From: Candidatus Dojkabacteria bacterium
GTDB lineage: Bacteria; Patescibacteriota; Dojkabacteria; B142; OLB20
Assembly (NCBI GenBank): GCA_030583785.1
Contig: CP129475.1
Coordinates: forward strand, 1,106,209 to 1,170,208
Length of the DNA: 64,000 bases
Direction of reading: 5' to 3'
Below are positions 1 to 60,427 of this stretch, piece after piece. A model generated the notes under the pieces. It did no database searches. It saw only the letters and a list, made by a program, of their open reading frames with translations, and was not told the DNA's origin. Each line of letters opens with the position of its first letter. Position 1 is the stretch's first letter. Position numbers and translations under genes: made by a program.

Positions 1-406
1 TCCTTTACTTAGTAAAAGAATAGCAAAACGGGTTTTGGCTGTCAGTCAATTTGAACTACTGACCGATTATGGTCTACGCACCCTTTCAGTTAGAGATAAA
101 AGCTATAAGGGACATTACCATGGGAATCAAAAAGAGCGAGATCAAGCCTATCACCAGGGAACAATTTGGCCATTTCTTCTGGGACTCTATGTAAAGGCTT
201 ATCTTAATGTGCATTCTCATAGTCAAAAAGCAAAAAAAGAAATGCAGGCTCTTCTCTCTAAGTTCGAAAAGAAGCTGGTAGCGGATGGGGAAGATTATAT
301 TGCAGAAATTTATGACCCAAATACAATGAAGCCTGATGGATGTATTTCACAGGCATGGAGTGCTGCAACTATTCTAGAAGCGCATTATCTGGTAAATAAA
401 AAATGA
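1..406 (+). CDS. C-terminal fragment (continues upstream of window) of an amylo-alpha-1,6-glucosidase / glycogen-debranching-enzyme-like six-hairpin glycosidase
   Basis: Frame 2 is open from position 2, so the TTG at 35 is probably internal. The 'GTIWPFLLGLYVKAY' region resembles the GDE_C family. The gene is overlapped by 4 nt with the next CDS. Confidence 0.45.
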   Translation, partial: PLLSKRIAKRVLAVSQFELLTDYGLRTLSVRDKSYKGHYHGNQKERDQAYHQGTIWPFLLGLYVKAYLNVHSHSQKAKKEMQALLSKFEKKLVADGEDYIAEIYDPNTMKPDGCISQAWSAATILEAHYLVNKK

Positions 407-2463
407 GTACAACACTTGTCCTTGGAAACAGCTCAATGTTAGTAAATATAAATCACGAAATGAAGATGAGTGATTTGTATTGGCCAAATGTCGGTCAGGA
501 AAACCATTTAAATAAGACTGTAAATGATCTCTATCTTTGGGTAGATGGTTCTCTTCATAATATTAACGAATGGGATTGTCATAGCATATACGAGAAAAAT
601 TCTCTGGTTGGGATAAGTAAGTTAACTAATAAGCAACTGAATGTTGATATCGAGGTACAAGAAGCAGTTCTTCATAACCAAGATGCACATATTAGAATTT
701 TCAAGTTAGTAAATAATTCCAACCTAGAAAGGCGAATAAGACTTTTTGCTTTGCAGAGATTTCATGTCAAAGAAACAGATATTGGAGATACCTGTCTATG
801 GTACCCGCCAGCAAATGCAATGGTTCATTACAAGAAGGATAGATACATTGCTACAGCGACGAGTGTAAAGTTATATCAGTTCACTTGTGCAGCTCCAGAC
901 GACAACGAAGGTAAAGGGGCAATGCCAGATTCGAACGGTGAACTGAAATTCAATCAAATCGCTACCGGAGAAGTTGAATCTTCTATTTCGATAGAAAGAA
1001 TAATTCAAGCAGATACATCGGTATACATAGACCTGATTACGGTTTGTGGACATTGTTTCGATGATGTCCAGAGGGACTTAGAAAGTATTAGAGACAAAGG
1101 ATCTTTGGAACTGATCAAAGAAACAAATGAATATTGGAAGAGTTTTATCAAGAATATTGAAGACAACTTGTCGATAAGTAATCTGCAAATCTTTCCTGAT
1201 GAAAACGATAACAAAAAACTGATAGATATGTTTTATCGATCTCAGTTAATTATTCGGACACAAACCGACAAAAATGGTGCAATTATCGCCGCAAATGACT
1301 CTACTTACTTAAAGGAGGGCGGGAAAGACAGTTATGCGTACTTTTGGCCAAGAGATGCAGCCTTTGCTGCAAAGGCTCTTATTGACAGTGGTGATATTAA
1401 AATCGCCAAGAATTATATCGAGTATTGCGCAAATTTAATTGATCCTCGTGGATTCTTGTTACACCGATATTATTCTCAGTCTCAGAGTGGACTTGCTTCT
1501 AGCTGGCATCCTTGGATAGGTAACGATGGGAGCTATCAGCTTCCCATACAAATTGATGAAACAGCTTTGATGCTGACTATTGCAGAATCAATTATTAAGT
1601 CAGAATCAAACCGTGATTGGATAAAACAATACTGGACTAAGCTGATAAAGCCGGCAGCAGATTTTTTGGTGGATTACCGCTTTAATTCTACGCAAGAAAT
1701 TCCTCAGAAATTTAATGATCATATTGAAGGGTTCATATTTTCCGATAAAGGATTTGATACAGGAGCTTTTTCTATAGAAGTTAGTGGTCTTCCCAGATTG
1801 TCATATGATATTTGGGAGGTACGCCAAGGAGTATTTTGCTATTCTACTGCAGCTGTATATGCAGGGTTGTTAGCGGCTTCTGCTGTGGCAATGGAGATCG
1901 GAGAGTTGGATCATTCGGTCAGATTCAGACAAGTAGCAAGAAAGATAAGAGCCAAAGCAAACGAACTATTTATTGATAAAGAGAGAAAGCTAATCTCCGC
2001 AGGTATTTTTATTAATCATCAGACAGGAAAATTAGAAAGCGAAAAAGGTGCAGATGCTTCTGTACTTCTTGCTTTAAAACTAAATCTATTTGAAGTTGAT
2101 GAAGAAATCATTTTAAATACTGTTCGCTTTATCGAAGAGAAGCTCTGGTTGCAAACAGATATTGGTGGTTTAGCCAGAAAAGAAAGTGACTGGTATTTAA
2201 GAGTAGACAATGAATTACCAGGAAACCCATGGTTCATAACCACCGCATGGTTGGCGGAGTTTTGGGCAAGTAGAGGAAATATAGCCAAGGTTCAACGCTA
2301 TACAAAATGGATAATGGATCACGCAGATATTACTGGACTAATTGCCGAACAAGCTCATCCGTATAATGGTTATGGAATCTCTGTAAAGCCTTTGACTTGG
2401 TCACATACTGAAGTCATAAATGTGGTAAACACCATTTTGAAACTTGATGTTAAGCACTTGTAG
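403..2463 (+). CDS. glycoside hydrolase family 15-like (glucoamylase/glucodextranase-type) enzyme
   Basis: 686 aa with a 'YFWPRDAAFAAKALIDSGD' motif typical of GH15 (alpha/alpha)6 barrel enzymes. It sits in an alpha-glucan gene cluster. Confidence 0.55.
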   Translation: MSTTLVLGNSSMLVNINHEMKMSDLYWPNVGQENHLNKTVNDLYLWVDGSLHNINEWDCHSIYEKNSLVGISKLTNKQLNVDIEVQEAVLHNQDAHIRIFKLVNNSNLERRIRLFALQRFHVKETDIGDTCLWYPPANAMVHYKKDRYIATATSVKLYQFTCAAPDDNEGKGAMPDSNGELKFNQIATGEVESSISIERIIQADTSVYIDLITVCGHCFDDVQRDLESIRDKGSLELIKETNEYWKSFIKNIEDNLSISNLQIFPDENDNKKLIDMFYRSQLIIRTQTDKNGAIIAANDSTYLKEGGKDSYAYFWPRDAAFAAKALIDSGDIKIAKNYIEYCANLIDPRGFLLHRYYSQSQSGLASSWHPWIGNDGSYQLPIQIDETALMLTIAESIIKSESNRDWIKQYWTKLIKPAADFLVDYRFNSTQEIPQKFNDHIEGFIFSDKGFDTGAFSIEVSGLPRLSYDIWEVRQGVFCYSTAAVYAGLLAASAVAMEIGELDHSVRFRQVARKIRAKANELFIDKERKLISAGIFINHQTGKLESEKGADASVLLALKLNLFEVDEEIILNTVRFIEEKLWLQTDIGGLARKESDWYLRVDNELPGNPWFITTAWLAEFWASRGNIAKVQRYTKWIMDHADITGLIAEQAHPYNGYGISVKPLTWSHTEVINVVNTILKLDVKHL

Positions 2464-2465
2464 AC

Positions 2466-3881
2466 CTAATCAAGGTTGTGAAGATTGACGACTGTAAGTT
2501 TTCCTCGTGTCATTAGCTCTAGTGTTTCGATAGTTCCTTGCATGAATTGACCAGAGTCGTTGACCCCACCGAATGGGAAATTATCTGGACCTCTGTCTGT
2601 TCTGGCATTTATCTGAACTGTTCCGACTTCAAGTTTTGAGGAAATTCTGAAAGCTTCGTCAATGTCTTGACTATAGACGCTTGCCTGTAAGCCATATTTT
2701 AATTCTGCATGAACTTTAATGGCTTCTTGTTCGTCTTTAACGCGAATAATTGGCAGAACTGGACCAAACTGTTCTTCGCTAAATATTCGCATTTCAGGAC
2801 TTATTTTATCAATAATGCTTGCCTGCCAATGATTTTTTGATCTTTGCCCAGAGAGAGCAAGATGAGCTCCTTTTTCAGTCGCATCTGTAATTAGCTCACC
2901 AATGTAATCAGCTGATGCTTCGTCGATCATAGGATTAAGATCCAGCAAAGCTGATTTTTCAACAAGTTTATCTCTGAGTTTGTCTGCAATTCCATCGTAA
3001 GCAATGACGATTTTTTGTGCAGTACATCTTTGCCCACAATAAGAAAAACCGCCTGAAACAATTTCTGAAGTTGCGACTTCTATGTCTGAATTATTTGTGA
3101 CAATAGCAGCGTCTTTCCCCCCAAGCTCTAAAAGCAAGGGAATACCGGTTGAGATTTTCCCGATATGTCTACCAACACCCGTGCTTCCTGTAAAGGCGAT
3201 AAGCTTAATTCGTTCGTCTGTTATTAATACATCTCCAATTTCTGAAGAGCTTCCGGTGACGATATTTAGTACCCCGTCAGGAAGGCCTGCTTCAAAGAAC
3301 TTGCTATAGAACGCAGTGGCAGAGAAACTACCTTGCGTTGCAGGTTTGAAAACAACTGTATTGCCAGCAAGAATTGCCGGTGCGATCTTCGTTATGGATA
3401 GATTTATCGGATAATTAAACGAAGAAATTGCCAGAATCACTCCCAAGGGTTCTCGTGTATAGAGACCTGTTTTTCTCATTCTTTCGTATTGTCCGGTTAT
3501 GTCCCCATAATACAATCGACCAGTTTGCTGAGCTAGCGCTTGCATAACAAGCTTAATGTAGCCAATCGACCGATTAATTTCGCTTTCTGCATCTTTTGGG
3601 AATTTTCCGATTTCTTTGCTTAGGACTTGAGCAAGTTCATCTTTGCTTTCAATAAGTCGTGCAATAATTTTTTCAAATATTTCTAATCTTGCAGATAGAG
3701 ATGTATTTCTCCAGGTTAAAAATGAATTTGCGGCCATGTCTATAGCTAACGTTGCTTGTTTGGCAGAGGCTGCCTGAACTTGCGCAAATGGATTAAGGTC
3801 CCAGGGTGAATTGAGAGTGATAGTCTTTCCGTTTTCGGATTCCTGCCAGTCGGATCCTATTTTTAGATGAGCGGTTTGCAT
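2466..3881 (-). CDS. aldehyde dehydrogenase family protein, probably non-phosphorylating NADP-dependent glyceraldehyde-3-phosphate dehydrogenase (GapN-like)
   Basis: 471 aa with the ALDH signature 'LELGGKD' and the catalytic-Cys region 'FSYCGQRCTA'. Length is typical of GapN. Confidence 0.7.
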   Translation of the reverse strand: MQTAHLKIGSDWQESENGKTITLNSPWDLNPFAQVQAASAKQATLAIDMAANSFLTWRNTSLSARLEIFEKIIARLIESKDELAQVLSKEIGKFPKDAESEINRSIGYIKLVMQALAQQTGRLYYGDITGQYERMRKTGLYTREPLGVILAISSFNYPINLSITKIAPAILAGNTVVFKPATQGSFSATAFYSKFFEAGLPDGVLNIVTGSSSEIGDVLITDERIKLIAFTGSTGVGRHIGKISTGIPLLLELGGKDAAIVTNNSDIEVATSEIVSGGFSYCGQRCTAQKIVIAYDGIADKLRDKLVEKSALLDLNPMIDEASADYIGELITDATEKGAHLALSGQRSKNHWQASIIDKISPEMRIFSEEQFGPVLPIIRVKDEQEAIKVHAELKYGLQASVYSQDIDEAFRISSKLEVGTVQINARTDRGPDNFPFGGVNDSGQFMQGTIETLELMTRGKLTVVNLHNLD

Positions 3882-3992
3882 ATTTATTCTTTAACTAATT
3901 TATACTAGCAGTTAAGGTTTCAACCAACAACAAATTTTTTACTTATAATTTGTTTCAATATTTGTTAGAGTAAATAATACTTAATCTGCCCG

Positions 3993-6900
3993 ATGGAAGA
4001 TACGATTTTTCGTGCATATGATGTTAGAGGCACGGTCCCAGATCAATTGAATACTCAAGTTGCTTATGCGGTTGCCAAGGCATATTTCGAAATAACTCCT
4101 GGATCAAATTTCATTATCGGTTACGACATGAGAGAATCCTCTCTCCCGTTTGCCAGAGCTTTTGCTAAGGCCGCACAAGATATGGGAAGAAGCCTGGTAA
4201 GTCTTGGCAGAACAACAACGGATATGCTTTATTTTGGTCTTGGCAGTAAAAACTTTGATGGTGGAATAATGATTACCGCTTCACATAATCCCAAACATTG
4301 GAACGGAATCAAATTAATGAGCAAAGGTGTTGTTCCTATAGATATGAATCAGCTGAGAGTTCGTTATCAAGAAAATAATTTGCAAGTGCAAGAAGCAGAC
4401 ATTAAGTTTAATGAAGAAATTCCAATCGTAAATTATGACAAAGATTTTACAGATTTCATCCTTTCGCTTGTCGATCCAACAACATTCCCGGCTTTAAAGG
4501 TTATTGTTGATGCCGGAAATGGAATGGGAGGATTGCATGCCAGAAAAGTTTTTCAATTGCTACCTATGATTGAAGTAATTGAAATGTATTTTGAACCAAA
4601 TGCGAATTTTCCACATCATCAGGCAAATCCAGTCGTTCCATCCAACACAAAAGAGCTTAGTCAAAAGGTTATTTCAGAAAACGCAGACCTTGGAATTGCT
4701 TTTGATGGAGATGGAGATAGATGTGTCTTTGTAGACGAAAATGGCAATTATGTTTCGCCGCATATTATTCTGGCGATTTTTGCCCGATTTTTTCTGCAAA
4801 GAAGTCCTGGGGCAAAAATCGCCTATGAATACAGAAACATCTACGCTCTTGACTCTGTATTAAAAGAATATCAAGGAGTTGGACTGCCATCAAAAGCTGG
4901 TCATTCATTTTTTAAAGAGCTAATGCACAGAGAAGGTGCAATATTTGGAGGCGAAAGCAGTGCACATTATTATTTTCAGGATACTTTTAATGCAGATAGT
5001 GGCATACTCCCATTTCTTCTTATATTCCAAATACTTGGTACAGAAAAGAAAAAGCTTTCAGAGTTAGTGAACGAGTTCAAGCATAAGTTTTTTAGCAGTG
5101 GTGAACTCAATTTTATTCTGCAGTCAAACAAAACCGTCGAAGAAGTATATCAAGCACTCACTGATTCTTTTCATCCTAAGAGTACAACTATGCCTGACGG
5201 CTTGGTTATTGAATTTGACAATTGGAGACTCAATGCTAGACCTTCGAATACAGAGCCAATGGTTCGTATAAATATAGAAGCCCTATCTGAAAATCAGTTA
5301 GAGGAATCTATAACAAAAGTCCACGAAGTGATGGGAGATTTTGCAATCTACCTTGGTGATTCTAGTTACTCAACACAAGAAGATTTGCACTCTCCCTTGA
5401 AAGATAGATATTTAAAACTGCTTCAGAATTTGTGGTATACATGGAATCCCCATTATATTCTTCCGATTATCGACCTTTATGGCGATGGTTGGCGAAAAAA
5501 TTCTCCGCCAGGTGAGTTTGCTTCTCAATACGGCAAAAAAAGACTCGATTCCATACTTACCGATAAATCATGGGAGATTGAGCAGAATTTAAGGTTGTTT
5601 GATATGTATATGGATAAAACTATTCCAACTCATTACAAAGCCTTACTCTCAGAAGAAAGATACTTGTTCCTTAAAATACTTGAACAAAAACCAATAGCTT
5701 ACTTTAGTATGGAGTATGGACTTGTTGACTGGCTCCAGATCTATTCTGGTGGACTCGGAGTCTTAGCCGGTGATTACATCAAACAGGCAAGTGATATGGG
5801 GTTACCACTTGTTGCACTGGGTATTTTCTATCATCAAGGATATTTTCATCAAGACTTCAACGAGCATGGTGAGCAGGTAGAAACATATATAGCTCAAAAT
5901 CCAGAAGAATATCCCTTAGAACTACTTAAAGATGAATCGGGTAATCCTGTATATGCAGAAATAGAGATAGTAGATCATATTGTTTATGTTCGAGCATGGA
6001 AGTTAAAAGTCGGCAGAGTAGATCTATACCTTTTGGATACAAATTTCGAGGCAAACGAGCGCTACGAAGATAAAATGATCAGCGCACATCTATACGGAGG
6101 AGATCAAGATACCCGTATTCGTCAAGAAATTCTGCTTGGAATTGGTGGTCCTAGAGTATTAAAACTTCTAGGTATCGAGCCAAGCCTTTATCATATGAAC
6201 GAAGGTCATTCGGGGTTTTTGGTAGTTGAACTTGCAAGAAGGTATATCGAAGAAGGGGGATTAACATTTGAACAGGCAGTTAAGAAAATCGATGATGAAC
6301 TCGTGTTTACAAATCATACACTTAAACAGGCAGGAAACGATATTTTTTCTTACGAACTAATCGAAAAATATTTTGTAACTTATCTAGACAACCTAAAGAC
6401 CGATCTGCCAAAACTTTACGATCTTGGAAAAGATGACCTTTACGCAGAAGGAAATTTCTCTATGACAATACTCGGTTTAAGAAATGCCAAGATCAGCAAT
6501 GCCGTAAGTAAGATTCATGGTCAGGCTGCAGCAAAGCTCTGGCCAGATTATAATCTTGTTCCTGTAACAAATGGCGTGCATATGCCAACTTGGGTTTCCC
6601 CAGAAATACATCAACTTCTTGATGCTTATGTCGGCGAGAATTGGCATATACCAGGATCGGCTGTAGATTTTGAAAAGATACAAATTATTCCCGATTCAGA
6701 GTTATGGCAAGCACATTTTAGAAGGAAAGAGAAACTCATTAACTCGTTAAACAATGAACTTGGACTTGACCTGAAAACAGATGCCTTGACTGTAGCTTGG
6801 TCTAGAAGACTTACAGCATATAAAAGGCCAGATATGATCGTGTCTGACCTAGAAAGATTAAAGCGCTTGGTAGGTAACGAAGATCGCCCTCTGCAGATTC

Positions 6901-7421
6901 TAATATCTGGGAAAGCACACCCGAAAGATACAAATGGAAAAGAGATTCTGGCAAGAATGAACAGAAGCCTTTCTGCCAGTGAATTTAGTAATAAAGTTGT
7001 ACTTTTACCGGGTTATAACTGGCAATTGGCTAGAAGAATAGTCTCTGGTGCAGATGTTTGGCTAAATACTCCATATAGGTTCGAAGAAGCATCAGGAACA
7101 AGCGGCATGAAAGCTGCTGCAAATGGAGTCTTACAGCTTACTACCAGAGATGGATGGACTGACGAGGTAGACTGGTTTAAAAAAGGTTGGGTAATTGATG
7201 AACAACACCCTGTTGATTCTTTGCACGATACGCTAGAATATAAATTAATACCATTGTTCTTTGAGTTGAATGCAAGTAGTTATAATACAGAGTGGGTCAG
7301 TATGATGAAGAACTCAATGCAGTCAGTACTTTACGAGTACTCAACTGAAAGAATGATAATGGAGTATTTATCAAATATTTATGGACCGATTTTAAAAGCA
7401 AAGGACGATGGAGAATCTTGA
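3993..7421 (+). CDS. fusion protein: N-terminal phosphoglucomutase/phosphomannomutase (alpha-D-phosphohexomutase) + C-terminal alpha-glucan (glycogen/maltodextrin) phosphorylase, GT35
   Basis: N-terminal half has the phosphoserine loop 'TASHNPKHWNGIKL' and the 'GDGDRC' Mg site. From about aa 470 there is an 'NLWYTWN' box (archaeal-type glucan phosphorylase N-domain) and the PLP-site motif 'EASGTSGMKAAANG'. It is one uninterrupted 1142-aa ORF. Confidence 0.75.
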   Translation: MEDTIFRAYDVRGTVPDQLNTQVAYAVAKAYFEITPGSNFIIGYDMRESSLPFARAFAKAAQDMGRSLVSLGRTTTDMLYFGLGSKNFDGGIMITASHNPKHWNGIKLMSKGVVPIDMNQLRVRYQENNLQVQEADIKFNEEIPIVNYDKDFTDFILSLVDPTTFPALKVIVDAGNGMGGLHARKVFQLLPMIEVIEMYFEPNANFPHHQANPVVPSNTKELSQKVISENADLGIAFDGDGDRCVFVDENGNYVSPHIILAIFARFFLQRSPGAKIAYEYRNIYALDSVLKEYQGVGLPSKAGHSFFKELMHREGAIFGGESSAHYYFQDTFNADSGILPFLLIFQILGTEKKKLSELVNEFKHKFFSSGELNFILQSNKTVEEVYQALTDSFHPKSTTMPDGLVIEFDNWRLNARPSNTEPMVRINIEALSENQLEESITKVHEVMGDFAIYLGDSSYSTQEDLHSPLKDRYLKLLQNLWYTWNPHYILPIIDLYGDGWRKNSPPGEFASQYGKKRLDSILTDKSWEIEQNLRLFDMYMDKTIPTHYKALLSEERYLFLKILEQKPIAYFSMEYGLVDWLQIYSGGLGVLAGDYIKQASDMGLPLVALGIFYHQGYFHQDFNEHGEQVETYIAQNPEEYPLELLKDESGNPVYAEIEIVDHIVYVRAWKLKVGRVDLYLLDTNFEANERYEDKMISAHLYGGDQDTRIRQEILLGIGGPRVLKLLGIEPSLYHMNEGHSGFLVVELARRYIEEGGLTFEQAVKKIDDELVFTNHTLKQAGNDIFSYELIEKYFVTYLDNLKTDLPKLYDLGKDDLYAEGNFSMTILGLRNAKISNAVSKIHGQAAAKLWPDYNLVPVTNGVHMPTWVSPEIHQLLDAYVGENWHIPGSAVDFEKIQIIPDSELWQAHFRRKEKLINSLNNELGLDLKTDALTVAWSRRLTAYKRPDMIVSDLERLKRLVGNEDRPLQILISGKAHPKDTNGKEILARMNRSLSASEFSNKVVLLPGYNWQLARRIVSGADVWLNTPYRFEEASGTSGMKAAANGVLQLTTRDGWTDEVDWFKKGWVIDEQHPVDSLHDTLEYKLIPLFFELNASSYNTEWVSMMKNSMQSVLYEYSTERMIMEYLSNIYGPILKAKDDGES

Positions 7422-7728
7422 CGATTACAATTCGCCCTGGAAAAGAGCTGCATTTGAATTTGCTCTTGCTATTGCTGTTATTGTTTTGTTCATATTAATT
7501 GGTATTGCAGCTTACAATGCTGTACAAGAAGAAATTAGGCAACAGCAGTTGATTGGCGGCGAGCTATTAAAAAAGTGCCAGCAAGTTTATCTTGTAGATG
7601 TATATCCATATAACCAAAGTAGTAATATTGATAGAGCAAAATTAGAAGAATTCTATCGTATGAATCGTGAGTGTAGAATATTCAACCTTACAGACCTAGA
7701 CCCCATCTTCCTCAGGAATGTCCAATAA
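7408..7728 (+). CDS. small membrane protein, hypothetical
   Basis: 106 aa with one clear TM helix ('FALAIAVIVLFILIGIAAY'). It overlaps the preceding gene end by 14 nt. Confidence 0.35.
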   Translation: MENLDDYNSPWKRAAFEFALAIAVIVLFILIGIAAYNAVQEEIRQQQLIGGELLKKCQQVYLVDVYPYNQSSNIDRAKLEEFYRMNRECRIFNLTDLDPIFLRNVQ

Positions 7729-7826
7729 GATTCCGAAATAATACGGACAACTTAATTACTAAAAATCTGTCCGCATTTCAACTACACCCAGAATAGACTG
7801 CATCGAATTTTGGCTAGATAGTTTGG

Positions 7827-9482
7827 GTGTTTTTGACCGAATCTTTAGCTTTAGATATTGCTTTATGCATGGTTATTGGTGTAATCTGTATTGCGATGAC
7901 AGAGATAATAAACCCTGAACAAATAATTGCAGAAGAAAGGTTCCGAAACGAGTTAGGTAGTCGTATCGATTTCTTGATTGCTAATCAATCAGGCTCCGTA
8001 ACTGCAGAAGATCTTCTCAGACGAGGGATGAGAATTGACCCATCAGAAATCCCTAACCCCATAGAAATGTCACCTCCTTTCAGGCAACAAGAGATAATTG
8101 AAGTAGATAGAATCCCCGGGATCATTGTTATGACAGATACTCATTTAATGCCGCAGAATGAAGAAACTCCTTCTTCGACAAAAAGAACAGGTTACGGACT
8201 ATGGAGAATTCCTGCATTTAGAAACGGATCAAGGCTAGTAGATAATGCAAGTTGGTGGGCTCTTCGTCAATTAGCAAAACCCATAGAATCTGCCCTTTCC
8301 GGTGATGATGGAGCAGATGTCATTTTTCATGCTGGTGATGCAATTGACAGTTACACAACTGGGTCGTTTCTAAGTGCTATGGGAGATCTAGAATCATATG
8401 TACAGAAACGCTTTCAAAATGCAGATCGAAACGGTAGAGCTGGCTATTATAGTGTAGGCGAAGGTAATCACGAAAAAGCTTATCAAGGACCAGATCTGAT
8501 TGCCGGTTACGCTGGCCTAAAAGGTTCTATGCTTTCAGAAGAAAGCTTTACTCTTATTGTAAATGCAATAAAATCGGGAATTAGTATTAAGGCAATTGCT
8601 TCAGCTTTTTCTGCCGCAGGAAAAGAAGTTGATATCTCAGATCCAATAATTCATCCTGCAATGCGTTGGTATATTTTTAGACTTGTGACAGGCCCTGAGG
8701 TCGGAATGTTCCAGGCTAAACAAGACGAGGCGAATCATTCTATGGCCTTTTTAAACTCAGAGTTTAACGGACCTGGATGTACATTGCTTGATCTAGAGGA
8801 AAGCTTAAGAAGGATCGGCCTCTTTGATACAAGTATTGGTCAAGAGGTGTTAGAAACCTATAAAGATGATTTTCTTAGACAGGAACGAGTTATTGATTCA
8901 CTCTTGAATGAGCTAATAAATGATGGTGATCATAAGGCAACGGTATACGCTCATAATCCTGTCCGAATGCAAGAAATTCTCGCTGGTGAAATGTTTGCTA
9001 AGCTTGTCAAACACTCCGAGACTGTAGCTTTCGAAGATGTAATGTCCCTTGTACAGGATCGTATCCTAGTAATTGGCGGGCACTACCATTTTGAACCAAA
9101 AAAGGCTGAGAGACGAAAAGGTGTAAGAGTATTAAGTGCCATCTCCAGACAATTAATGGGGCCGTTAGCCATGAAGCCTGCGGAATATCCTTCGATATTT
9201 GGAAGCGAGGGTAGACTTCAAATTATTCTTGGAGCTGTCGAAGTTATCCTCAGGCAAGGAACTTTTCAAACATATCCCAAAGGCGATAAAGCAGAAATCT
9301 TAATTGGTTCTGCAGATGATCCAAGAAGTGTATTTGTTGACGCCGAGGATATTATGTCAACATTTAATAGTCTGAAAAGAAAGTCCTTCGTGAACCGCGC
9401 TGGACAGATGTTAAAGAGAATCAATATATATGCCGGAGGCGGGGATCGAACCCGCACGGCTGTTAAGGCCAAAGGATTTTAA
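7827..9482 (+). CDS. hypothetical protein (551 aa)
   Basis: Long ORF with an N-terminal TM segment and no motif I recognise. Its last ~17 codons are a read-through of the antisense strand of tRNA-Leu. Confidence 0.4.
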   Translation: MFLTESLALDIALCMVIGVICIAMTEIINPEQIIAEERFRNELGSRIDFLIANQSGSVTAEDLLRRGMRIDPSEIPNPIEMSPPFRQQEIIEVDRIPGIIVMTDTHLMPQNEETPSSTKRTGYGLWRIPAFRNGSRLVDNASWWALRQLAKPIESALSGDDGADVIFHAGDAIDSYTTGSFLSAMGDLESYVQKRFQNADRNGRAGYYSVGEGNHEKAYQGPDLIAGYAGLKGSMLSEESFTLIVNAIKSGISIKAIASAFSAAGKEVDISDPIIHPAMRWYIFRLVTGPEVGMFQAKQDEANHSMAFLNSEFNGPGCTLLDLEESLRRIGLFDTSIGQEVLETYKDDFLRQERVIDSLLNELINDGDHKATVYAHNPVRMQEILAGEMFAKLVKHSETVAFEDVMSLVQDRILVIGGHYHFEPKKAERRKGVRVLSAISRQLMGPLAMKPAEYPSIFGSEGRLQIILGAVEVILRQGTFQTYPKGDKAEILIGSADDPRSVFVDAEDIMSTFNSLKRKSFVNRAGQMLKRINIYAGGGDRTRTAVKAKGF

Positions 9483-9514
9483 GTCCTTCGTGTCTACCAT
9501 TCCACCACCCCGGC
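9430..9514 (-). tRNA. tRNA-Leu (anticodon TAA), type II with long variable arm
   Basis: Hand-folded from the reverse complement: acceptor GCCGGGG/CTCCGGC, anticodon stem AAGGA/TCCTT, loop CTTAAAA, T-arm GCGGG-TTCGATC-CCCGC. No CCA is encoded. Confidence 0.8.
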
Positions 9515-9541
9515 AATTAATCTTTTTTTGATTTTCAAGTA

Positions 9542-9615
9542 AGGTGACGGCGGGATTCGAACCCGCGCGTAAGGGTTTTGCAGACCCTGGCCTTAACCAG
9601 CTTGGCTACGTCACC
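9542..9615 (-). tRNA. tRNA-Cys (anticodon GCA)
   Basis: Reverse complement folds with acceptor GGTGACG/CGTCACC, anticodon stem AGGGT/ACCCT, loop CTGCAAA and T-loop TTCGAAT. Confidence 0.8.
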
Positions 9616-9678
9616 TCAGCATGGGAATTGTAGCAGAAAATTACTTTCGATATAAGTCCTGTTTGAGAATTGGTCTTG

Positions 9679-10002
9679 TTAAACAGATTCCAAAAAAAGA
9701 ATATCTGCATCCATCTGGTTAAAGATTTCGCTTTCTTGAAAATCTTCTATGATAAGTTCGTCTATCTGCGTTATTGTTAAACCAATCTCCTCATGACTGG
9801 TCGATATTGTTCCAGGATCAGAAAATAGATTGATTACAAAAAACAAACAAGCAAATCCGAAAAACAGATAGCTCAGTATTTCGAGCAAAGGCTTATTTTT
9901 GTTAAAGGAAGCAAATGCTCGCTTTTCAATATTTGAAAGCTCTTCAGCTGGTATATCCTTTTGCCTTAACATATCTTCAATATATTTATCTGCTTTATTC
10001 AT
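9679..10002 (-). CDS. putative anti-sigma factor / small membrane protein
   Basis: 107 aa with a single TM helix, immediately downstream of an ECF sigma gene with the stop and start overlapping. Confidence 0.4.
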   Translation of the reverse strand: MNKADKYIEDMLRQKDIPAEELSNIEKRAFASFNKNKPLLEILSYLFFGFACLFFVINLFSDPGTISTSHEEIGLTITQIDELIIEDFQESEIFNQMDADILFLESV

Positions 10003-11393: not shown

Positions 11394-12341
11394 CTAAAAA
11401 GCTAGTTCACTAATAACAAATACAACATAGATTGATAAAAGAATAGCACTTTCTTTTTGCGACAGAAAACTACGGGAGCGCATGAAAATAAAGAACAAAA
11501 TGAATCCAAGCACTGAGAATATTAAGAGTTTAGTAAAGTTTGCATCTAATACAATTCCACCAGATACTAGCCCCAGAACTGACATAATCAGCGGATTGAA
11601 TAGTGCAGATCCGAGATAGTTGCCAAATCCAATTTCTGATCTTCCTTTTATGGCAGCAATAATAACAAGTGAGATTTCTGGTAGATTTGTACCTATTGAA
11701 AGTCCAATCAAGGCAAGTATAAAAGGCGAGAGGTTGATACTTGATCCTATTTTGTCGATTCCTTCAACTAGTATGTTGCTGGAAAAGATTAGGATAATTG
11801 ATCCAACTGTAACGAAACTTAAGGCTAAGGCAACTTTTGAGTGGTGTAGTTTAGCAATTTTTCTTTTATTGCGAACCTTTTTCGCAGAGGCCTTATCTCC
11901 GAAGTAAAGAAAAAGTGCCAGTATTACATACATAACAAACATGGACCAGCTTTCTTGAAGCGATAGTACATTGTCCAGTAAAAAAATATGTGGAACCAGT
12001 AAAAATAATATGCAAAGAAAAGTGTTTCTAACACCGAAGCCGTTGCTGAGATGAATCCCCTTTGCTAGCATTCCTAAGAGCGGGATTACAAACATCAGCA
12101 GGACTAGAGAGCCTCCAAGCAGATTGCCCACAGAGATTTCAAGTCTATCTTCGATGAAAGAATTATACGCAACACTAACCTCTGTGAGTGATGTGAATAG
12201 GCCTAGAATAAAAAAAGAAACAATGAACGAAGAACTGTTCAACTTTTTGGCAATTTCGTCAATCGGTTTAACCGCCAAGGTTGCTCCTATCCAAATTCCT
12301 ACAAATGCTATTAAGATTATTATCCAGTCGTTAAGTAACAT
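11394..12341 (-). CDS. Ca2+:cation antiporter (CaCA / Na+-Ca2+ exchanger) family membrane protein
   Basis: 315 aa polytopic protein with duplicated alpha-repeat motifs 'GNLLGGSLVLL' and 'GNYLGSALFN', plus 'GTNLPEI'. Confidence 0.75.
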   Translation of the reverse strand: MLLNDWIIILIAFVGIWIGATLAVKPIDEIAKKLNSSSFIVSFFILGLFTSLTEVSVAYNSFIEDRLEISVGNLLGGSLVLLMFVIPLLGMLAKGIHLSNGFGVRNTFLCILFLLVPHIFLLDNVLSLQESWSMFVMYVILALFLYFGDKASAKKVRNKRKIAKLHHSKVALALSFVTVGSIILIFSSNILVEGIDKIGSSINLSPFILALIGLSIGTNLPEISLVIIAAIKGRSEIGFGNYLGSALFNPLIMSVLGLVSGGIVLDANFTKLLIFSVLGFILFFIFMRSRSFLSQKESAILLSIYVVFVISELAF

Positions 12342-12420
12342 ACTATTGATTAATAGAATCTATGAAATTCTCTATTAGATTGATTGAGAAGTAAATAGTT
12401 GTGATTACTATTTTGCATAG

Positions 12421-12497
12421 TGGTCGGGGTGGGCAGACTCGAACTGCCGACCTCGCGCACCCGAAGCGCGCATTCTAGCCAACTGAACTACACCCCG
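12421..12497 (-). tRNA. tRNA-Pro (anticodon CGG), CCA encoded
   Basis: Reverse complement CGGGGTG...CACCCCGACCA. Anticodon stem CGCGC/GCGCG with loop TTCGGGT. An alternative register would give Arg-TCG but has a worse stem. A paralogue 100 nt away reads Pro-GGG. Confidence 0.65.
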
Positions 12498-12503
12498 TGA
12501 AGA

Positions 12504-12590
12504 TGGTGCCAGAGGAGGGAATTGAACCCTCACTCCGATAAAAGAACACGGCTCTGAACCGTGCGCGTCTACCAGTTCCGCCACTCTGGC
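12504..12590 (-). tRNA. tRNA-Leu (anticodon CAG), long variable arm, CCA encoded
   Basis: Reverse complement GCCAGAG...CTCTGGCACCA. Anticodon stem CACGG/CCGTG with loop TTCAGAG, a 17-nt variable arm and T-loop TTCAATT. Confidence 0.8.
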
Positions 12591-18686: not shown

Positions 18687-20192
18687 ATGAAACGAATGTG
18701 GTTAAGGAAAAATGTAATGTTCAACTTGCTAATGGCACAAGATCAGAATAGTTTGGTCAACTTCAGCCAGCTTGAACCGAGTTTAGATCGAATGTATGAA
18801 ATTGGTATTCGCGCTCTATTTATTAATCCGTTTTTTGATACTGGAACAAGATTAAAAAAGACAGAGGTCGCTCATCGTTTTCCAAGAGGTGCTTTTAAGG
18901 GGAGTCCTTATGCCGTCTATGATCATATGTCTATAGAAGATGATCTGCTCTATGAATCCGACGATGATTATATCGATCAATCCAGCGCATTTAAAGACTT
19001 TGTAATTAAGGCACACAGAAGAGGTATCAGGGTGGTGTTAGATTTTATAACAAATCATACTAGTCACGACTTTCCCCTGCAGAAATATTATCCAGAATGG
19101 TTTTTATATAAAGAAGACATTCTGTCTTTGGAATCTCCCTATTTGAGCTTTGCGGATTTAGGGAAAAAATTGCCATGGGGCGATGCAAAGCACACAGTTA
19201 TTCCATTTATCAACGGGGATTTTTATTGGAGCGATACAGCTCAGTTAAACTGGGAAAAGGATTTGCCCCCAGCTCCCAATGAGCCTCCAAACAATCCATC
19301 TCTAAGAGCAATGTTCGATTATTTCATTACAGTCGCAAATTATTGGGTGGCGGAGTTTGGAGTTGATGGGTTTAGATGCGATCTTGCCGATAGAATCCCG
19401 CAAGAATTTTGGGTTGAATGCATATCTGCAGTAAAGAAGACAGCAGCTACTTATAAGCAGGGAGTTTATACGCTTGACGGTGATTCCATTTTTATTGCCG
19501 AGACAAGATCTCAGGATCGAGAAACCTTGCATGAAGCAGGATTTGATTTCGTTTACAGTAGTCTGGCTGAATCTCTTTTTGATAATCGTAAATTGAAAGA
19601 TTATTTAGGCAGTATCTCGGGCGAGAAGTGGTTAAACTTCACTGACACATATGATTTTTATCCTGATTCAAGGCTGCCTGAATCGGTTTATGAGAATATT
19701 AGCGATAAAGACCTATCCAGAAATAGTCCAGCATATTGGGCAATAGCAGCAACGCTTCCTGGGCTTGCTATGATGTATACGGGAATCGAAAAAAAATCTT
19801 GGCAGTTTTTCTTGGAAGCAAAAGATAATACCGACACTAATCACTCAAATGCCAATGCCTATGAAAAGATTAACGAAATACGAGCCACGCAAAAAGCTCT
19901 GTGGGGTAGCGAGATGCAGACCTTGGAGTGTAATGGAGAAAAGAGTGATGCTATTATTGCCTACCTGCGCGGTGTTGGCAAAGAGAAGCTAATCATTATT
20001 GTTAACACAAGTCGAGAAGATGTTTCTGATGTTTTTGTAGATGTGACTGTAGCTTTAGAGAGCTATGAGCGTAATTATATATTAAAGGATTTGGTTACCG
20101 GATCAATTTTCCTTAGAACTGGACCTATGTTGCAAATTGATCTTAAGGCACAGTCCTATCATATATTTAAAGTAGAAGAACAATGGGGTTAA
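18687..20192 (+). CDS. alpha-amylase family glycoside hydrolase (GH13)
   Basis: 501 aa with region I 'VVLDFITNHTSHD' and region II 'GFRCDLADRIP'. Confidence 0.65.
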   Translation: MKRMWLRKNVMFNLLMAQDQNSLVNFSQLEPSLDRMYEIGIRALFINPFFDTGTRLKKTEVAHRFPRGAFKGSPYAVYDHMSIEDDLLYESDDDYIDQSSAFKDFVIKAHRRGIRVVLDFITNHTSHDFPLQKYYPEWFLYKEDILSLESPYLSFADLGKKLPWGDAKHTVIPFINGDFYWSDTAQLNWEKDLPPAPNEPPNNPSLRAMFDYFITVANYWVAEFGVDGFRCDLADRIPQEFWVECISAVKKTAATYKQGVYTLDGDSIFIAETRSQDRETLHEAGFDFVYSSLAESLFDNRKLKDYLGSISGEKWLNFTDTYDFYPDSRLPESVYENISDKDLSRNSPAYWAIAATLPGLAMMYTGIEKKSWQFFLEAKDNTDTNHSNANAYEKINEIRATQKALWGSEMQTLECNGEKSDAIIAYLRGVGKEKLIIIVNTSREDVSDVFVDVTVALESYERNYILKDLVTGSIFLRTGPMLQIDLKAQSYHIFKVEEQWG

Positions 20193-20698
20193 ACATTAAA
20201 AAGGTATTATTCGCAGGTAAATTTTTGCCATATATATATTTGTTCGCCTCGGCGTTAGGATTATTGATTTTGGCTCTAATTTATATTAATGGTTCTTCTC
20301 AACCAACTGAAATTACTGGAAATCGAGATGCAGATGGTCAAAGACTGAGCCTTGACCAGGAAAATAAAAATCTTACATCAGAGACTGTCACTACATTTAA
20401 TTTTACGACTAATGGAGAACTAACTGATGCCAAGGCAACTTTAGTTAGTTTAGATGAACAAGTGGAATTGATTCTTGATCTAGGATCAAACAGCGAGGTA
20501 GATGGGTATTCTCTAGCTTTGCATCACGGTAGTTGCCAAGACTTGAACGAACAAAAAATAAGTTTGGGGGAGTTAGATAATTCTGGAAAGAGTATCGAGA
20601 TTACCACAGAAGTTAAAGACTTTATTCAAGAGAGTAGGCCACTTGTGATCAAGAACTTAGATGGTGAAGTTCTCTTTTGCACCAATATAAAGCTATGA
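20183..20698 (+). CDS. exported/membrane-anchored hypothetical protein
   Basis: 171 aa with an N-terminal TM helix. It overlaps its neighbours by a few nt. Confidence 0.35.
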   Translation: MGLNIKKVLFAGKFLPYIYLFASALGLLILALIYINGSSQPTEITGNRDADGQRLSLDQENKNLTSETVTTFNFTTNGELTDAKATLVSLDEQVELILDLGSNSEVDGYSLALHHGSCQDLNEQKISLGELDNSGKSIEITTEVKDFIQESRPLVIKNLDGEVLFCTNIKL

Positions 20699-21696
20699 AG
20701 ATTGCAATTTTCGAAGCAGAACAAGAGTATGTTTCGACATATGAATCTTCTTTCCCTGATCATGATCTAGTCTGTTTTAACGAGCCGCTTCGTGAACATA
20801 ATCTGGAACTAGCAAGAGATGCAGAAATGCTATCTGTCTTTGTTGGCTCGATTCTATCTGCCGAGGTTGTGGCTGCTCTACCGAAACTAAGATTTATTGC
20901 AACAAGATCAACTGGATATAATCATATCGATCTTGACGCCTGCAGCAAAAACGGAGTAAAGGTCCTGAATGTCCCGTCTTACGGCGAGAAAACTGTTGCG
21001 GAGCATACTTTCGCATTGCTTCTGGCAGTATCTCGGAATATTCACAGATCATATCTGCGAGTTCAATCCGGCAATTTTGCGGTTAAAGATCTGGTAGGAT
21101 TTGAACTCGCAGACAAAACAATTGGTATTATTGGCACCGGCAGTATTGGTATAAATGTCATTAAAATTGCCAAAGGTTTCGATATGAGGGTCTTGGCTTA
21201 TTCCAGAACGAAAAAGCCAGAACTAGAAAAATTGTATGCAGTGGAGTATTGTCAAAATATCGAGGAATTACTCGCAAGATCAGATGTAATCTCTTTACAT
21301 GTTCCATATACAAAAGATACGCATCATCTAATAGGTTCTCATAACAGCAGGTTTATAAAGAAGGGGGCAGTTATAATCAATACCTCTCGAGGAGAACTTA
21401 TTGATACAGACGAACTTTATCAACTGCTGAAGAACCAAGTCATTAGCGGTGCCGGGCTTGATGTTATTGAAGGAGAAGAGCATATTTCCGAAGATTTTGA
21501 GCTAATCAGCAGTAATAAGAATCCGGAGTTAATAAGGCAAATATACCGTGATCGTGAAATTTTTAAGATGGACAATGTTGTTTACACTCCACATAGTGGT
21601 TTTAATAGCAAAGAGGCATTAGACAGGTTAATCAAGAATTCAATCAGTAATATGAAATTTGTAATTGCAGGAAATCTAAGTAATCTAGTAAATTGA
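20677..21696 (+). CDS. D-isomer-specific 2-hydroxyacid dehydrogenase (D-lactate/phosphoglycerate dehydrogenase-like)
   Basis: 339 aa with Rossmann motif 'GIIGTGSIGINV' and a catalytic Arg/Glu/His arrangement ('SRGELIDTDEL', 'TPHSG'). Confidence 0.75.
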   Translation: MHQYKAMKIAIFEAEQEYVSTYESSFPDHDLVCFNEPLREHNLELARDAEMLSVFVGSILSAEVVAALPKLRFIATRSTGYNHIDLDACSKNGVKVLNVPSYGEKTVAEHTFALLLAVSRNIHRSYLRVQSGNFAVKDLVGFELADKTIGIIGTGSIGINVIKIAKGFDMRVLAYSRTKKPELEKLYAVEYCQNIEELLARSDVISLHVPYTKDTHHLIGSHNSRFIKKGAVIINTSRGELIDTDELYQLLKNQVISGAGLDVIEGEEHISEDFELISSNKNPELIRQIYRDREIFKMDNVVYTPHSGFNSKEALDRLIKNSISNMKFVIAGNLSNLVN

Positions 21697-27252: not shown

Positions 27253-27326
27253 TGCCGGGTCGTCTAAAGGTAGGACTTTGGTTTCTGGCACCAAAAATCG
27301 GGGTTCGAATCCCTGCCCGGCAACCA
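27253..27326 (+). tRNA. tRNA-Gln (anticodon CTG), CCA encoded
   Basis: Acceptor TGCCGGG/CCCGGCA with U1-A72, D-stem GTCT/GGAC, anticodon stem TTGGT/ACCAA with loop TTCTGGC, T-arm CGGGG-TTCGAAT-CCCTG, then discriminator A and CCA. Confidence 0.75.
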
Positions 27327-28784
27327 AGTTGTACTCCCTGTATGGTCAACTATACAGTCGAATGGTTCGAGCCATGTAAATTCAATCTTTTTGTTCTTCA
27401 AAATAAAGTTCGAGCCGACCGAAATTAGTACCTCTTTTCTGTCATAGTGATCTCCAGTTGTGAATACTAAATGTGCCATTCTAGCTACAATAATCATACG
27501 CTCATACTGTTCGAGCCATCTATTTCCTGCCTTTTCGCATTCCTTTAGAGTCTGTTTTGCATTTTGAGACTCCATTACAAGTTGCCCTATTTGCAAATCC
27601 AAATCTTCTTTAGGTATTATTCCATCTGAGTAAAGATCCAATAACCTAGATTTTTTTAATTCAATCTTCTTAACTTCATTATTCCAAAAATCAAGACTTC
27701 CTATATATGCATCTGTTTCTATTTTGTTTCTCTCTTTTAAGCCAGCCAAAATAGCCTTTTGAACATCTTCATCAATGGAAATCCTTTTGAGCTGTGTCTC
27801 TATTTGTTCATTGAGCAATTCTTCTCGTATATATTTTTGAGAGCAAGTTCCTTTTTTCTTCGTGCATCGATAGTAAGTATGTCCTTTTTTTATCTCAGAT
27901 GTTATTGAACAACCACATTCGCCACAGTGAAATAGACCATGATACATAGACATGCCCTTTTTTCTTTTTAACATTGATGGTTTTCCTTTCATTTTCATAA
28001 TTTTTTGTACCTGTAAAAATTTACCAATATTTACAATGGGCATGTGAGCACCCTCATATCTCTCCCCCCCATAGACCAATACTCCTGCATAAAATGGGTT
28101 TTTAAGAGTGTTTTGTATCATACTCTTAGATAACATATTACCACTTTTACTCCTTAGTCCCCATTTAAAAGATTCTTGCCTGATCTCAGTCATCGTGTAA
28201 TTGCCTGTGCCATACTCATAAAAAAGTTTTTGCACTAGATAAAACTTTTCAGGATCTGGAAGAATTTTTTTATCTCGATTTATGTATCCTAATAGTGCTT
28301 GTGTTGGCCATTCACCTTTTTTCAACTTTGTTTTTTGTCCTCTTTTGATATTTTGACTTAGACTGTCAACATAGTATTTAGATTGGCCAAACGCTAGACT
28401 TAAACTGAACTTACCTTGAGGAGAGTTATCGACCCAATAAGTTGGAAATTTTAAATCTCTAATAACACCTCTATCCATTAAATAAATAATCTTTCCACCA
28501 TCAATTGAATTTCTAGCCAACCTATCGGGGTGCCATGCAATAATACCACTTGCAACACCGCTTTCTAGTAATTCAATCATTTTATTAAAAACTTCGCGAC
28601 CAGGTTCCTTAGCAGTTTTAGATTCTATGAAAACTTCAACAACTGTAAGTTTATTACTCAACGCAAATTCCTTTGCTTCAGAAATTTGGGACTCTATTGA
28701 TTGGACTTGACGATTATCTTCGTCAGTTGATTTACGACAATAGATAAAATATCTTATATCTGTTGTGCCTATTGATTTATTCAT
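27264..28784 (-). CDS. large serine recombinase (integrase)
   Basis: 506 aa. The resolvase-type catalytic N-terminus 'YCRKSTDEDNRQVQSIESQ' has the serine nucleophile. It is followed by a recombinase domain and Cys-rich zinc-ribbon ('CGECGC...CTKKKGTC'). The last ~20 codons run antisense through the tRNA-Gln 3' half. Confidence 0.8.
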   Translation of the reverse strand: MNKSIGTTDIRYFIYCRKSTDEDNRQVQSIESQISEAKEFALSNKLTVVEVFIESKTAKEPGREVFNKMIELLESGVASGIIAWHPDRLARNSIDGGKIIYLMDRGVIRDLKFPTYWVDNSPQGKFSLSLAFGQSKYYVDSLSQNIKRGQKTKLKKGEWPTQALLGYINRDKKILPDPEKFYLVQKLFYEYGTGNYTMTEIRQESFKWGLRSKSGNMLSKSMIQNTLKNPFYAGVLVYGGERYEGAHMPIVNIGKFLQVQKIMKMKGKPSMLKRKKGMSMYHGLFHCGECGCSITSEIKKGHTYYRCTKKKGTCSQKYIREELLNEQIETQLKRISIDEDVQKAILAGLKERNKIETDAYIGSLDFWNNEVKKIELKKSRLLDLYSDGIIPKEDLDLQIGQLVMESQNAKQTLKECEKAGNRWLEQYERMIIVARMAHLVFTTGDHYDRKEVLISVGSNFILKNKKIEFTWLEPFDCIVDHTGSTTWLPGRDSNPDFWCQKPKSYL

Positions 28785-30423: not shown

Positions 30424-30791
30424 TGAAATTTTCAAAAACTTTATACGACTATTTTGTATTACTTACGATGCCGTATTTATCGAAGGAAGAATTTCAAGTC
30501 ACAGTTTATATCTGCTCACAATTGTCTTCAAATAACTGTAATTGGGGTTTTGTAAGTAAATCGGTATTGGTTGACGGTTTTCATCCAATTAACAAATTTG
30601 GAGTCATGACAACAGGAGGAAATGGAACTGGACTTACAACCGAACAAGTTATTAAAGGTTTGGAACAAGCAAAAGACAGAGAATTTCTTTTAATAAGCGA
30701 AATTGAAGATGATCCTGATTTGATTAAGGTTGAAATCAATCAAAATTATTTAAAATTTCACGCTTTTGAATATGTTCAAAAAAACATTTAA
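30423..30791 (+). CDS. hypothetical protein (ICE early region)
   Basis: 122 aa. Its stop overlaps the next start. Confidence 0.35.
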   Translation: MKFSKTLYDYFVLLTMPYLSKEEFQVTVYICSQLSSNNCNWGFVSKSVLVDGFHPINKFGVMTTGGNGTGLTTEQVIKGLEQAKDREFLLISEIEDDPDLIKVEINQNYLKFHAFEYVQKNI

Positions 30792-49471: not shown

Positions 49472-49678
49472 TTGATGAATTCTATCGCAGAAAAAATACG
49501 AAATAAAAGGTCGGAATTAGGTTTAACCCAAGAGCAACTAGCAATTAAAGCTGGTATCCCTTATACAACGCTCTCAAAGATTGAAAATGATTTAGTCCCC
49601 AATCCCACAATAAAAACATTAAAAAAAATTGCTGATGCTTTGGGTATTTTAGTTGACGATTTATTAGGTAATGATTAG
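49472..49678 (+). CDS. XRE-family HTH regulator (possible controller of downstream R-M module)
   Basis: 68 aa, 'LGLTQEQLAIKAGIPYTTLSKIENDLV'. Its 3' end overlaps the SNF2 gene start by 8 nt. Confidence 0.65.
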   Translation: MMNSIAEKIRNKRSELGLTQEQLAIKAGIPYTTLSKIENDLVPNPTIKTLKKIADALGILVDDLLGND

Positions 49679-55396: not shown

Positions 55397-55403
55397 CTTC
55401 TGA

Positions 55404-58418: not shown

Positions 58419-58440
58419 TTAAATTATTAATGGTATTTAT

Positions 58441-60425: not shown

Positions 60426-60427
60426 TT

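Follow-up and report, generated by a model that had tools for sequence, protein, structure and literature searches.

We identified, in a 64,000-nucleotide stretch of the genome of a Candidatus Dojkabacteria bacterium (contig CP129475.1; this whole stretch is called the window and positions are counted from its first letter), a gene in which one open reading frame (ORF) joins a phosphohexomutase of the phosphoglucomutase (PGM) type to an alpha-glucan phosphorylase. Profile matches, matches to solved structures and the predicted fold agree on this composition, which had been proposed in a preliminary description of the DNA. The gene is located at 3993..7421 on the forward strand, as are all parts of it given below, and is a single ATG-started ORF encoding 1142 amino acids (aa). 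The N-terminal part is an alpha-D-phosphohexomutase module of the phosphomannomutase/phosphoglucomutase (PMM/PGM) type consisting of domains I-IV (aa 1-447; 3993..5333), recognized by Pfam, by NCBIfam model PRK09542, by the match to PDB entry 5bmn and by Foldseek. A linker of 27 residues (aa 448-474; 5334..5414), delimited by alignment and predicted structure, leads to the alpha-helical N-domain of the phosphorylase, DUF3417 (aa 475-580; 5415..5732), which carries a NLWYTWNPHYILPIIDLYGDGWRKN box. The GT35 phosphorylase catalytic core follows (aa 581-1132; 5733..7388) and was assigned by TIGR02094, PDB entry 9l6i and invariant alignment columns. In a Pfam scan, aa 5-438 matched PGM_PMM_I, II, III and IV, aa 475-579 matched DUF3417 and aa 733-1055 matched Phosphorylase, all above gathering score, and the C-terminal half was thereby confirmed as a phosphorylase. 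DUF3417 (PF11897) scored 35.5 bits against a gathering score of 25 over aa 475-579, a region that is helical in the AlphaFold2 model. The four motifs on which the preliminary description was built are all present in the translation, at aa 95-105 (TASHNPKHWNG), 238-243 (DGDGDR), 479-485 (NLWYTWN) and 1032-1040 (EASGTSGMK). Its statement that no nearby frame has a stop was incorrect, since 76 stops occur in one of the other two frames and 89 in the other, including several at the junction. The argument for a true junction is left untouched by this, as it depends on the coding frame, which alone is free of stops over the whole gene. The GC content of the two halves is 38.0% and 38.5%. A promoter and terminator scan of positions 3700-9700 gave nothing above chance, and it did not point to an internal promoter at the junction.

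The phosphorylase half matches TIGR02094 (alpha-glucan family phosphorylase) with 632.3 bits against an NCBIfam cut-off of 191.7 over aa 568-1131, and the match covers positions 1-599 of the 600 in the model. The GGLG (aa 586-589), TNHT (aa 773-776) and RRLTAYKR (aa 938-945) motifs are found in the core, together with the pyridoxal phosphate (PLP) site EASGTSGMK (aa 1032-1040; 7086..7112), in which Lys1040 (7110-7112) would form the Schiff base. In an alignment of 23 fusions (A1), Lys1040, Arg938, Arg939, Tyr943, Lys944, His775 of TNHT and GGLG 586-589 are invariant, and the PLP lysine is retained in every homologue aligned at the EASGTSGMK motif. We take RRLTAYKR, TNHT and GGLG to correspond to K568/R569/Y573/K574 (the KRIHEYKR phosphate site), H377 and the G135 loop of the rabbit muscle enzyme. 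The match to NF041129, the equivalog model of Thermococcales maltodextrin phosphorylase (MalP), is 529.7 bits with a cut-off of 1500, and by this score the phosphorylase of the window is a relative of that equivalog and not a member. The glycogen phosphorylase of Segatella copri (ScGP, 9l6i) matches the phosphorylase half with 392 bits at 32% identity and a template modelling (TM) score of 0.72 in Foldseek. The C-terminal half is thus, judged from these matches and residues, a GT35 alpha-glucan phosphorylase that is apparently intact.

The N-terminal half matches PRK09542 (PMM/PGM) with 390 bits over aa 4-446 and TIGR03990 (archaeal GlmM) with 297 bits, below the respective cut-offs of 618 (equivalog) and 439. 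Its four-domain architecture and conserved loops make it a member of the alpha-D-phosphohexomutase superfamily. Its top PDB match is the PGM of Xanthomonas citri (XcPGM, 5bmn; 270-273 bits), and Pseudomonas aeruginosa PMM/PGM (1k35) is matched with 209 bits, both over full-length alignments. The model of the PGM half superposes on the XcPGM structures 5bmn and 5bmp at TM 0.90-0.91, normalised to these (Foldseek). Alignment with solved enzymes located the phosphoserine loop TASHNP (aa 95-100; 4275..4292) with the catalytic Ser97 at 4281-4283, the Mg2+-binding loop DGDGDR (aa 238-243; 4704..4721), the sugar-binding loop GESSAH (aa 320-325; 4950..4967), which is equivalent to GEMSAH/GEMSGH, and the phosphate-binding loop RPSNTEP of domain IV (aa 416-422; 5238..5258). 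These four loops, as well as YDVRG and NGIK, are in register with XcPGM and P. aeruginosa PMM/PGM, and the Ser97 loop aligns with TASHNP of the former and with TGSHNP (the Ser108 loop) of the latter. All four catalytic loops are complete and the mutase module is, on this alignment, apparently intact. A separate observation concerns the 36 residues at the domain I/II boundary (aa 110-145; window 4320-4427), which hold 10 of the 17-18 aa differences that separate the window protein from P0001 and P0364, two relatives with 98% identity. This stretch has the lowest predicted local distance difference test (pLDDT) values of the PGM module (75-86) and is a hypervariable surface loop.

Foldseek returned no solved chain that spans both modules, and the arrangement of the whole chain was modelled with AlphaFold2 from a 108-sequence alignment. 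The mean pLDDT was 92.7 and the predicted TM score (pTM) 0.92. The latter is too high for two freely floating modules, and a packed arrangement is therefore predicted. The linker is the least conserved segment of the fusion alignment (31% mean pairwise identity) and is predicted to be partly ordered, with a strand at 451-453 and helices at 462-466 and 469-477.

The window protein is identical to P0360, which is GenBank entry WKZ27918.1 of Candidatus Dojkabacteria on a contig of 1,172,464 bp. Four more copies of 1142 aa from independent Logan assemblies (P0001 and P0364-P0366) belong to the same 90% cluster, and 34 further full-length fusion representatives of 90% clusters, 1086-1182 aa long and 37-98% identical, were found in independent assemblies. 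A scan of GTDB with one genome per species (185,579 genomes), for which the junction-spanning alignment A3 served as query, yielded 13 loci, and in eight of these (L003, L004, L005, L006, L007, L009, L010 and L011) PGM domain IV, linker and DUF3417 are contiguous and in frame. The search for orthologous fusions in related genomes that the preliminary description had proposed was thus positive, with the 34 representatives and the eight GTDB genomes keeping the junction in frame, and its view that an artefact is unlikely is upheld by the identical GenBank protein, the independent 1142-aa copies and the in-frame orthologues. A HMMER search of 1.84 billion 50%-identity representatives identified five (P0005, P0011, P0156, P0152 and P0216) that span both halves in one alignment; with the truncated P0123 the total is about six 50%-identity clusters. 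The architecture is rare and, by depositor labels, restricted to Dojkabacteria and a few other metagenome-assembled genomes (MAGs) of the candidate phyla radiation. The labels of L004, L009, L010, L011 and L012 are inconsistent; 'Doudnabacteria' and 'Saccharibacteria' occur among them, as does a Methanofastidiosum bin with a contig of 1.7 kb. Since the phosphorylase halves of these loci are without exception placed in the Dojkabacteria clade (58-62% identity), mislabelling or contamination of the bins is suggested.

Only one split version came to light, in WS6 OLB21 (a draft MAG), which has separate ORFs of 524, 187 and 400 aa annotated in place of the single gene. The first break is at a run of seven adenines (A7; codon 515, which in the window corresponds to 5535..5541 on the forward strand), 60 codons past the junction, and the second is inside the phosphorylase core. 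The breaks appear to be frameshift errors of this draft, or to reflect a pseudogene in it, and do not appear to mark a domain boundary. The frameshift at A7, most likely a sequencing error, leaves a 524-aa 'PGM-only' ORF, and a slippage-prone A7 run could in principle uncouple the two modules.

Public names of fusion proteins are 'alpha-glucan family phosphorylase', 'Phosphomannomutase/phosphoglucomutase' and 'starch phosphorylase', and WKZ27918.1 itself is named 'MAG: alpha-glucan family phosphorylase [Candidatus Dojkabacteria bacterium]', with the phosphorylase part only. No describing paper was found, so that the remark in the preliminary description that this architecture is not commonly annotated is justified. 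The open-access papers and preprints covered, including papers on candidate phyla radiation metabolism and a 2026 PNAS paper on bacterial phosphorylase clades, contain no description of a natural PGM-phosphorylase fusion, although absence there is not proof. The available portion of a 2024 Chemical Reviews article on prokaryotic alpha-glucan enzymes (PMC11046441) likewise describes none. The fusion protein is already present in databases but apparently undescribed in the literature.

The state of the N-terminal module was read from an alignment of 124 relatives. Besides the window protein, 19 cluster representatives have intact motifs, and the TASHNP loop is kept in all intact fusions. Fourteen cluster representatives have a full-length but catalytically dead module in which the catalytic serine, the Mg ligands and the phosphate loop are lost (for example SPQHG for TASHN, DQDGNS for DGDGDR and a missing RxSxTEP loop); P0216 lacks all three motifs. 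In five cluster representatives the module is shortened to about 290-320 aa and consists of domains I-II only, and in further relatives, which are phosphorylases of about 670 aa, it is absent. Three of the latter (P0024, P0026 and P0133) were verified from their genomic context as stand-alone phosphorylases: tblastn of the upstream regions found no PGM remnant, and the idea that they represent split genes was rejected because GH15, a sortase gene or an unrelated ORF of 107 aa stands in front of them. Some candidate losses were discarded. The pairing of P0134 with P0135 as a loss with 100% support was withdrawn as an artefact since the contig of P0134 has the gene starting at its base 1. P0134, P0125 and P0146 are truncated gene fragments; the latter two likewise begin mid-sequence, inside the phosphorylase, and come from contigs of 2-3 kb.

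In a bootstrapped neighbour-joining tree of the phosphorylase half, every N-extended form and many unfused proteins fall in one clade with 100% bootstrap. Inside it are a mixed clade (97%) and the main clade of dead modules (99-100%), which contains the true stand-alone P0133. In a tree of the PGM half, a bootstrap of 100% separates 34 fused halves and a single stand-alone PGM, P0304, as a clade from other PGMs. P0304 is 41-43% identical to fused PGM halves and was verified as stand-alone in L016. A homologue search with the PGM half returned unfused PGMs only (36-41% identity), the named ones from Actinomycetota, Chloroflexota and a few other groups, and revealed no stand-alone PGM of Dojkabacteria. 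The simplest history is one old fusion, which would have arisen once and early in the lineage, followed by repeated inactivation, shortening and loss of the module; because the deep nodes of the fusion clade are weak (many <60%), a number of independent losses is not claimed.

At equal phosphorylase divergence, the ratio of N-half to C-half identity is 0.47 for dead and 0.86 for intact modules. Between the dead modules of L009 and L010, the proportion of nonsynonymous differences (pN) in the N-half is 0.10 and that of synonymous differences (pS) is 0.75, which is saturated; pN/pS per domain of the dead module is 0.06-0.20, compared to 0.10-0.11 for the phosphorylase core. The AlphaFold2 model of the dead protein P0012 has a pLDDT of 94.2 and a pTM of 0.91, and its N-terminal module superposes on XcPGM at TM 0.89-0.90 with 20% identity, a prediction that is helped by the intact homologues in the alignment. 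As the dead module is under purifying selection and the PGM fold is predicted for it, a selectable non-catalytic role, most simply a structural one, is suggested. The occurrence of dead, truncated or absent PGM modules in sister lineages also indicates that mutase chemistry is not the sole reason for retention of the module.

The genes surrounding the fusion belong mostly to alpha-glucan metabolism. The preliminary description had placed it in a glycogen-catabolism cluster with a GDE fragment, GH15 and GapN, and this context was found; the fragment is however what the window includes of an amylo-alpha-1,6-glucosidase (GDE) gene that runs across the window edge, namely its 3' end (2..406, forward strand, frame open from base 2; GDE_C at 35-406). 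It is followed on the same strand by a glucoamylase-family GH15 gene (403..2463; Pfam, NCBIfam). A GapN-type aldehyde dehydrogenase gene on the reverse strand (2466..3881; Pfam, PDB matches) is divergent from the fusion gene, and the 11 best PDB matches of its product are all GapN (non-phosphorylating glyceraldehyde-3-phosphate dehydrogenase) with 337-367 bits, while the next family scores 236 bits. Downstream, orf106 (7408..7728, forward strand) shares 14 nt with the end of the fusion gene, including its stop, and encodes 106 aa with one predicted membrane helix and no family match; next comes a gene for a 551-aa protein (orf551) with a weak Metallophos match. The order GDE-GH15-GapN-fusion-orf106, with GapN inverted, is conserved in L003 and L005 (WS6 OLB20), where orf106 directly follows the fusion at 12277-12588 and 12294-12587, respectively, and in L005 orf551 is next. 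The stand-alone phosphorylase of L002 is likewise followed by a gene for 104 aa, and orf106 could be a phosphorylase partner. In L001 and L005 the upstream GDE gene is full-length (642-659 aa), and GDE-like sequence directly precedes GH15 in L003. In L002, L003, L005, L008, L009 and L010, GapN is found upstream of the phosphorylase gene at a distance of no more than a few kb; in L003 and L005 the two are adjacent. Further upstream, a GT5 glycogen synthase and GH57 are present in L001 and L009, and GH57 in L005. The locus is a cluster for glycogen synthesis and degradation joined to lower glycolysis. In L005 (4212-8766), GH15 and GapN align in two or three pieces in different frames, whereas the fusion gene is intact; these two genes are frameshifted, by draft-assembly errors or as pseudogenes. 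About 11 kb downstream of the fusion, the window contains a GH13 alpha-amylase-family gene (18687-20192) and a D-2-hydroxyacid dehydrogenase gene (20677-21696), which are consistent with a glucan-fermenting lifestyle.

The remainder of the window contains a probable integrative conjugative-type island (27253-62819) beside a tRNA-Gln(ctg) gene (27253-27326), tRNAs being the only Rfam matches in the window. A large serine recombinase gene on the reverse strand (27264-28784) overlaps the tRNA gene, and further island genes encode a 1367-aa surface protein with DUF11 repeats (30766-34869), a TraG/VirB4-like ATPase (38146-39975), an M23 peptidase (40845-41906), a protein with HTH and CAP domains (41857-43230), a Replic_Relax protein (46044-46940) and a SNF2 helicase (49671-52925). 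Defence cargo is found at the distal end (53552-61465). It comprises a type III restriction-modification pair, an N6/N4 methylase (53552-55396) and a protein with ResIII and RE_endonuc domains (55404-58418), and an OLD-family nuclease with AAA_15 and TOPRIM domains (58653-60425) with a 345-aa partner protein (60428-61465), an arrangement that resembles Gabija/OLD systems. To our knowledge, such mobile elements are little documented in genomes of the candidate phyla radiation.

Both component enzymes of the fusion are textbook enzymes. The clade-2 or 'alpha-glucan family' phosphorylases, to which ScGP and NF041129 belong, likewise consist of DUF3417 followed by a GT35 core with the PLP lysine in EASGTSGMK. 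In comparison to the 852-aa ScGP type, the window protein lacks the extra C-terminal beta-sheet domain, its phosphorylase part being about 670 aa, and in comparison to both ScGP and Thermococcales MalP it adds an N-terminal phosphohexomutase of 447 aa. With XcPGM and P. aeruginosa PMM/PGM it has in common the four-domain fold, the phosphoserine loop and the DxDxDR, GExSxH and RxSNTxP loops. It differs from stand-alone PMM/PGMs in being covalently continued by a phosphorylase, and its mutase module is 29-32% identical to solved enzymes and at most about 41-43% identical to any stand-alone PGM found. Fusions of glycogen synthase (GT3/GT5) with DUF3417 and phosphorylase (1084-1425 aa) were much more numerous among the top HMMER matches. 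In these a second glycogen enzyme is likewise placed directly N-terminal of DUF3417, but this partner acts in the opposite metabolic direction and does not consume the product of the phosphorylase. Natural fusions of alpha-glucan pathway enzymes for consecutive or related steps, namely TreS-Mak (Pep2), GlgB-MalQ and GlgA-GlgB, are given in the available portion of PMC11046441, as is the inactivity of one domain in the chlamydial GlgA-GlgB fusion; compared to the fusions covered there, different enzymes are joined here. Engineered cell-free cascades of phosphorylase and PGM convert starch or maltodextrin and phosphate to glucose-6-phosphate (G6P) without ATP, according to the accessible parts of PMC2716334 and PMC6190512. 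As far as these parts describe them, the cascades are separate enzymes mixed in vitro, and the fusion would be a natural covalent version.

Taken together, the window protein is probably a genuine bifunctional enzyme on a single polypeptide of Dojkabacteria (WS6, candidate phyla radiation), with a mutase module that is also structurally integrated. The PLP-dependent GT35 module would release alpha-D-glucose-1-phosphate (G1P) by phosphorolysis from the non-reducing ends of alpha-1,4-glucan, either glycogen or maltodextrin, and the phosphoserine/Mg2+ mutase module would convert G1P to G6P via glucose-1,6-bisphosphate. G6P would enter glycolysis, with GapN encoded by the divergent neighbour gene, and GDE and GH15 would serve debranching and end-trimming. 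Both reactions are reversible, and flux from G6P to G1P and on to glucan or nucleotide sugar would chemically be equally allowed. The fusion would give the two activities a 1:1 stoichiometry and proximity, with the mutase module predicted to be packed against the phosphorylase without a loose tether. A second, structural or regulatory value of the module is suggested by the relatives that keep it under selection after losing every catalytic residue. We infer enzymatic activity, substrate identity, flux direction and kinetic advantage from the sequence; true channelling of G1P is possible but unsupported.

Several observations weigh against this interpretation. The PGM half reaches none of the NCBIfam equivalog cut-offs (PMM/PGM, GlmM, CpsG), so that its specificity for glucose, mannose or glucosamine phosphates is not settled by sequence. 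The dead and truncated modules and the stand-alone phosphorylases indicate that the phosphorylase can do without PGM chemistry and even without the module. Within the 90% cluster of the window protein, 14-15 of the 17-18 substitutions are located in the N-terminal half. The arrangement of the modules is an AlphaFold2 prediction, and nothing in it favours a tunnel. No second PGM, GlmM or phosphorylase was found within the 64-kb window, the part of the genome covered.

An alternative, which we consider unlikely, is that the PGM-fold module is mainly a structural or regulatory appendage, controlling oligomerisation via the DUF3417 helical domain or sensing hexose phosphate, for example, with a mutase activity that is low or vestigial or does not matter for flux. 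The 14 dead but selected full-length representatives with their predicted PGM fold and the truncated forms that keep domains I-II only are in agreement with such a role, and in ScGP the N-terminal helical domain, the site to which PGM is attached in the window protein, builds the oligomer (PMC12912991). On the other hand, the window protein and the 19 representatives with intact motifs retain every catalytic and ligand-binding residue, and the higher identity ratio of intact compared to dead modules indicates an extra constraint that is consistent with catalysis. We consider it improbable that the N-terminal module is an active mutase for another substrate (phosphomannomutase or phosphoglucosamine mutase) and that the fusion reflects co-expression and not consecutive catalysis. 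The best NCBIfam matches of the module, all below cut-off, are dual-specificity PMM/PGM and archaeal GlmM, dual-specificity PMM/PGM is also among its closest solved relatives, and genomes of the candidate phyla radiation often have a single phosphohexomutase that serves several pathways. However, the top PDB match is the glucose-specific PGM of X. citri, the phosphorylase to which the module is fused, and on which it is predicted to pack, yields G1P as its sole sugar phosphate, the genes of the locus serve glycogen metabolism and glycolysis, and dual specificity is compatible with a role in G1P conversion. That two adjacent genes were joined by an assembly or frameshift artefact or in a chimeric contig is extremely improbable and was rejected as far as sequence data reach: the three-ORF annotation in OLB21 could be cited for it, but both breaks there are within the phosphorylase half at least 60 codons downstream of the junction, an ORF of the identical length was recovered in at least five independent assemblies, the junction is in frame in orthologues down to 37% identity, both halves have the same GC content, and a partly ordered linker and a high whole-chain pTM are predicted.

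If the fusion is the bifunctional enzyme proposed here, it would be a ready-made ATP-free catalyst from glucan and phosphate to G6P, for which cell-free biomanufacturing uses separate enzymes. More tentatively, and with considerable doubt, the PGM-fold module could be more than a second enzyme, namely a partner on which phosphorylases of this class obligately depend for structure or allostery. It is predicted to pack rigidly on the DUF3417/GT35 body, and several sub-lineages retain it as a pseudoenzyme under purifying selection. If true, this would be a previously undescribed way to build or regulate a GT35 phosphorylase, and the family would form a natural series from bifunctional enzyme to pseudoenzyme-bearing form, truncated stub and stand-alone enzyme. 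For studying why dead domains persist, the family offers an unusually clean series of modules (intact, dead but selected, truncated and absent) on a conserved phosphorylase. For the biology of the candidate phyla radiation, the fusion would be an example of a very small genome compacting the entry of stored or scavenged alpha-glucan into glycolysis.

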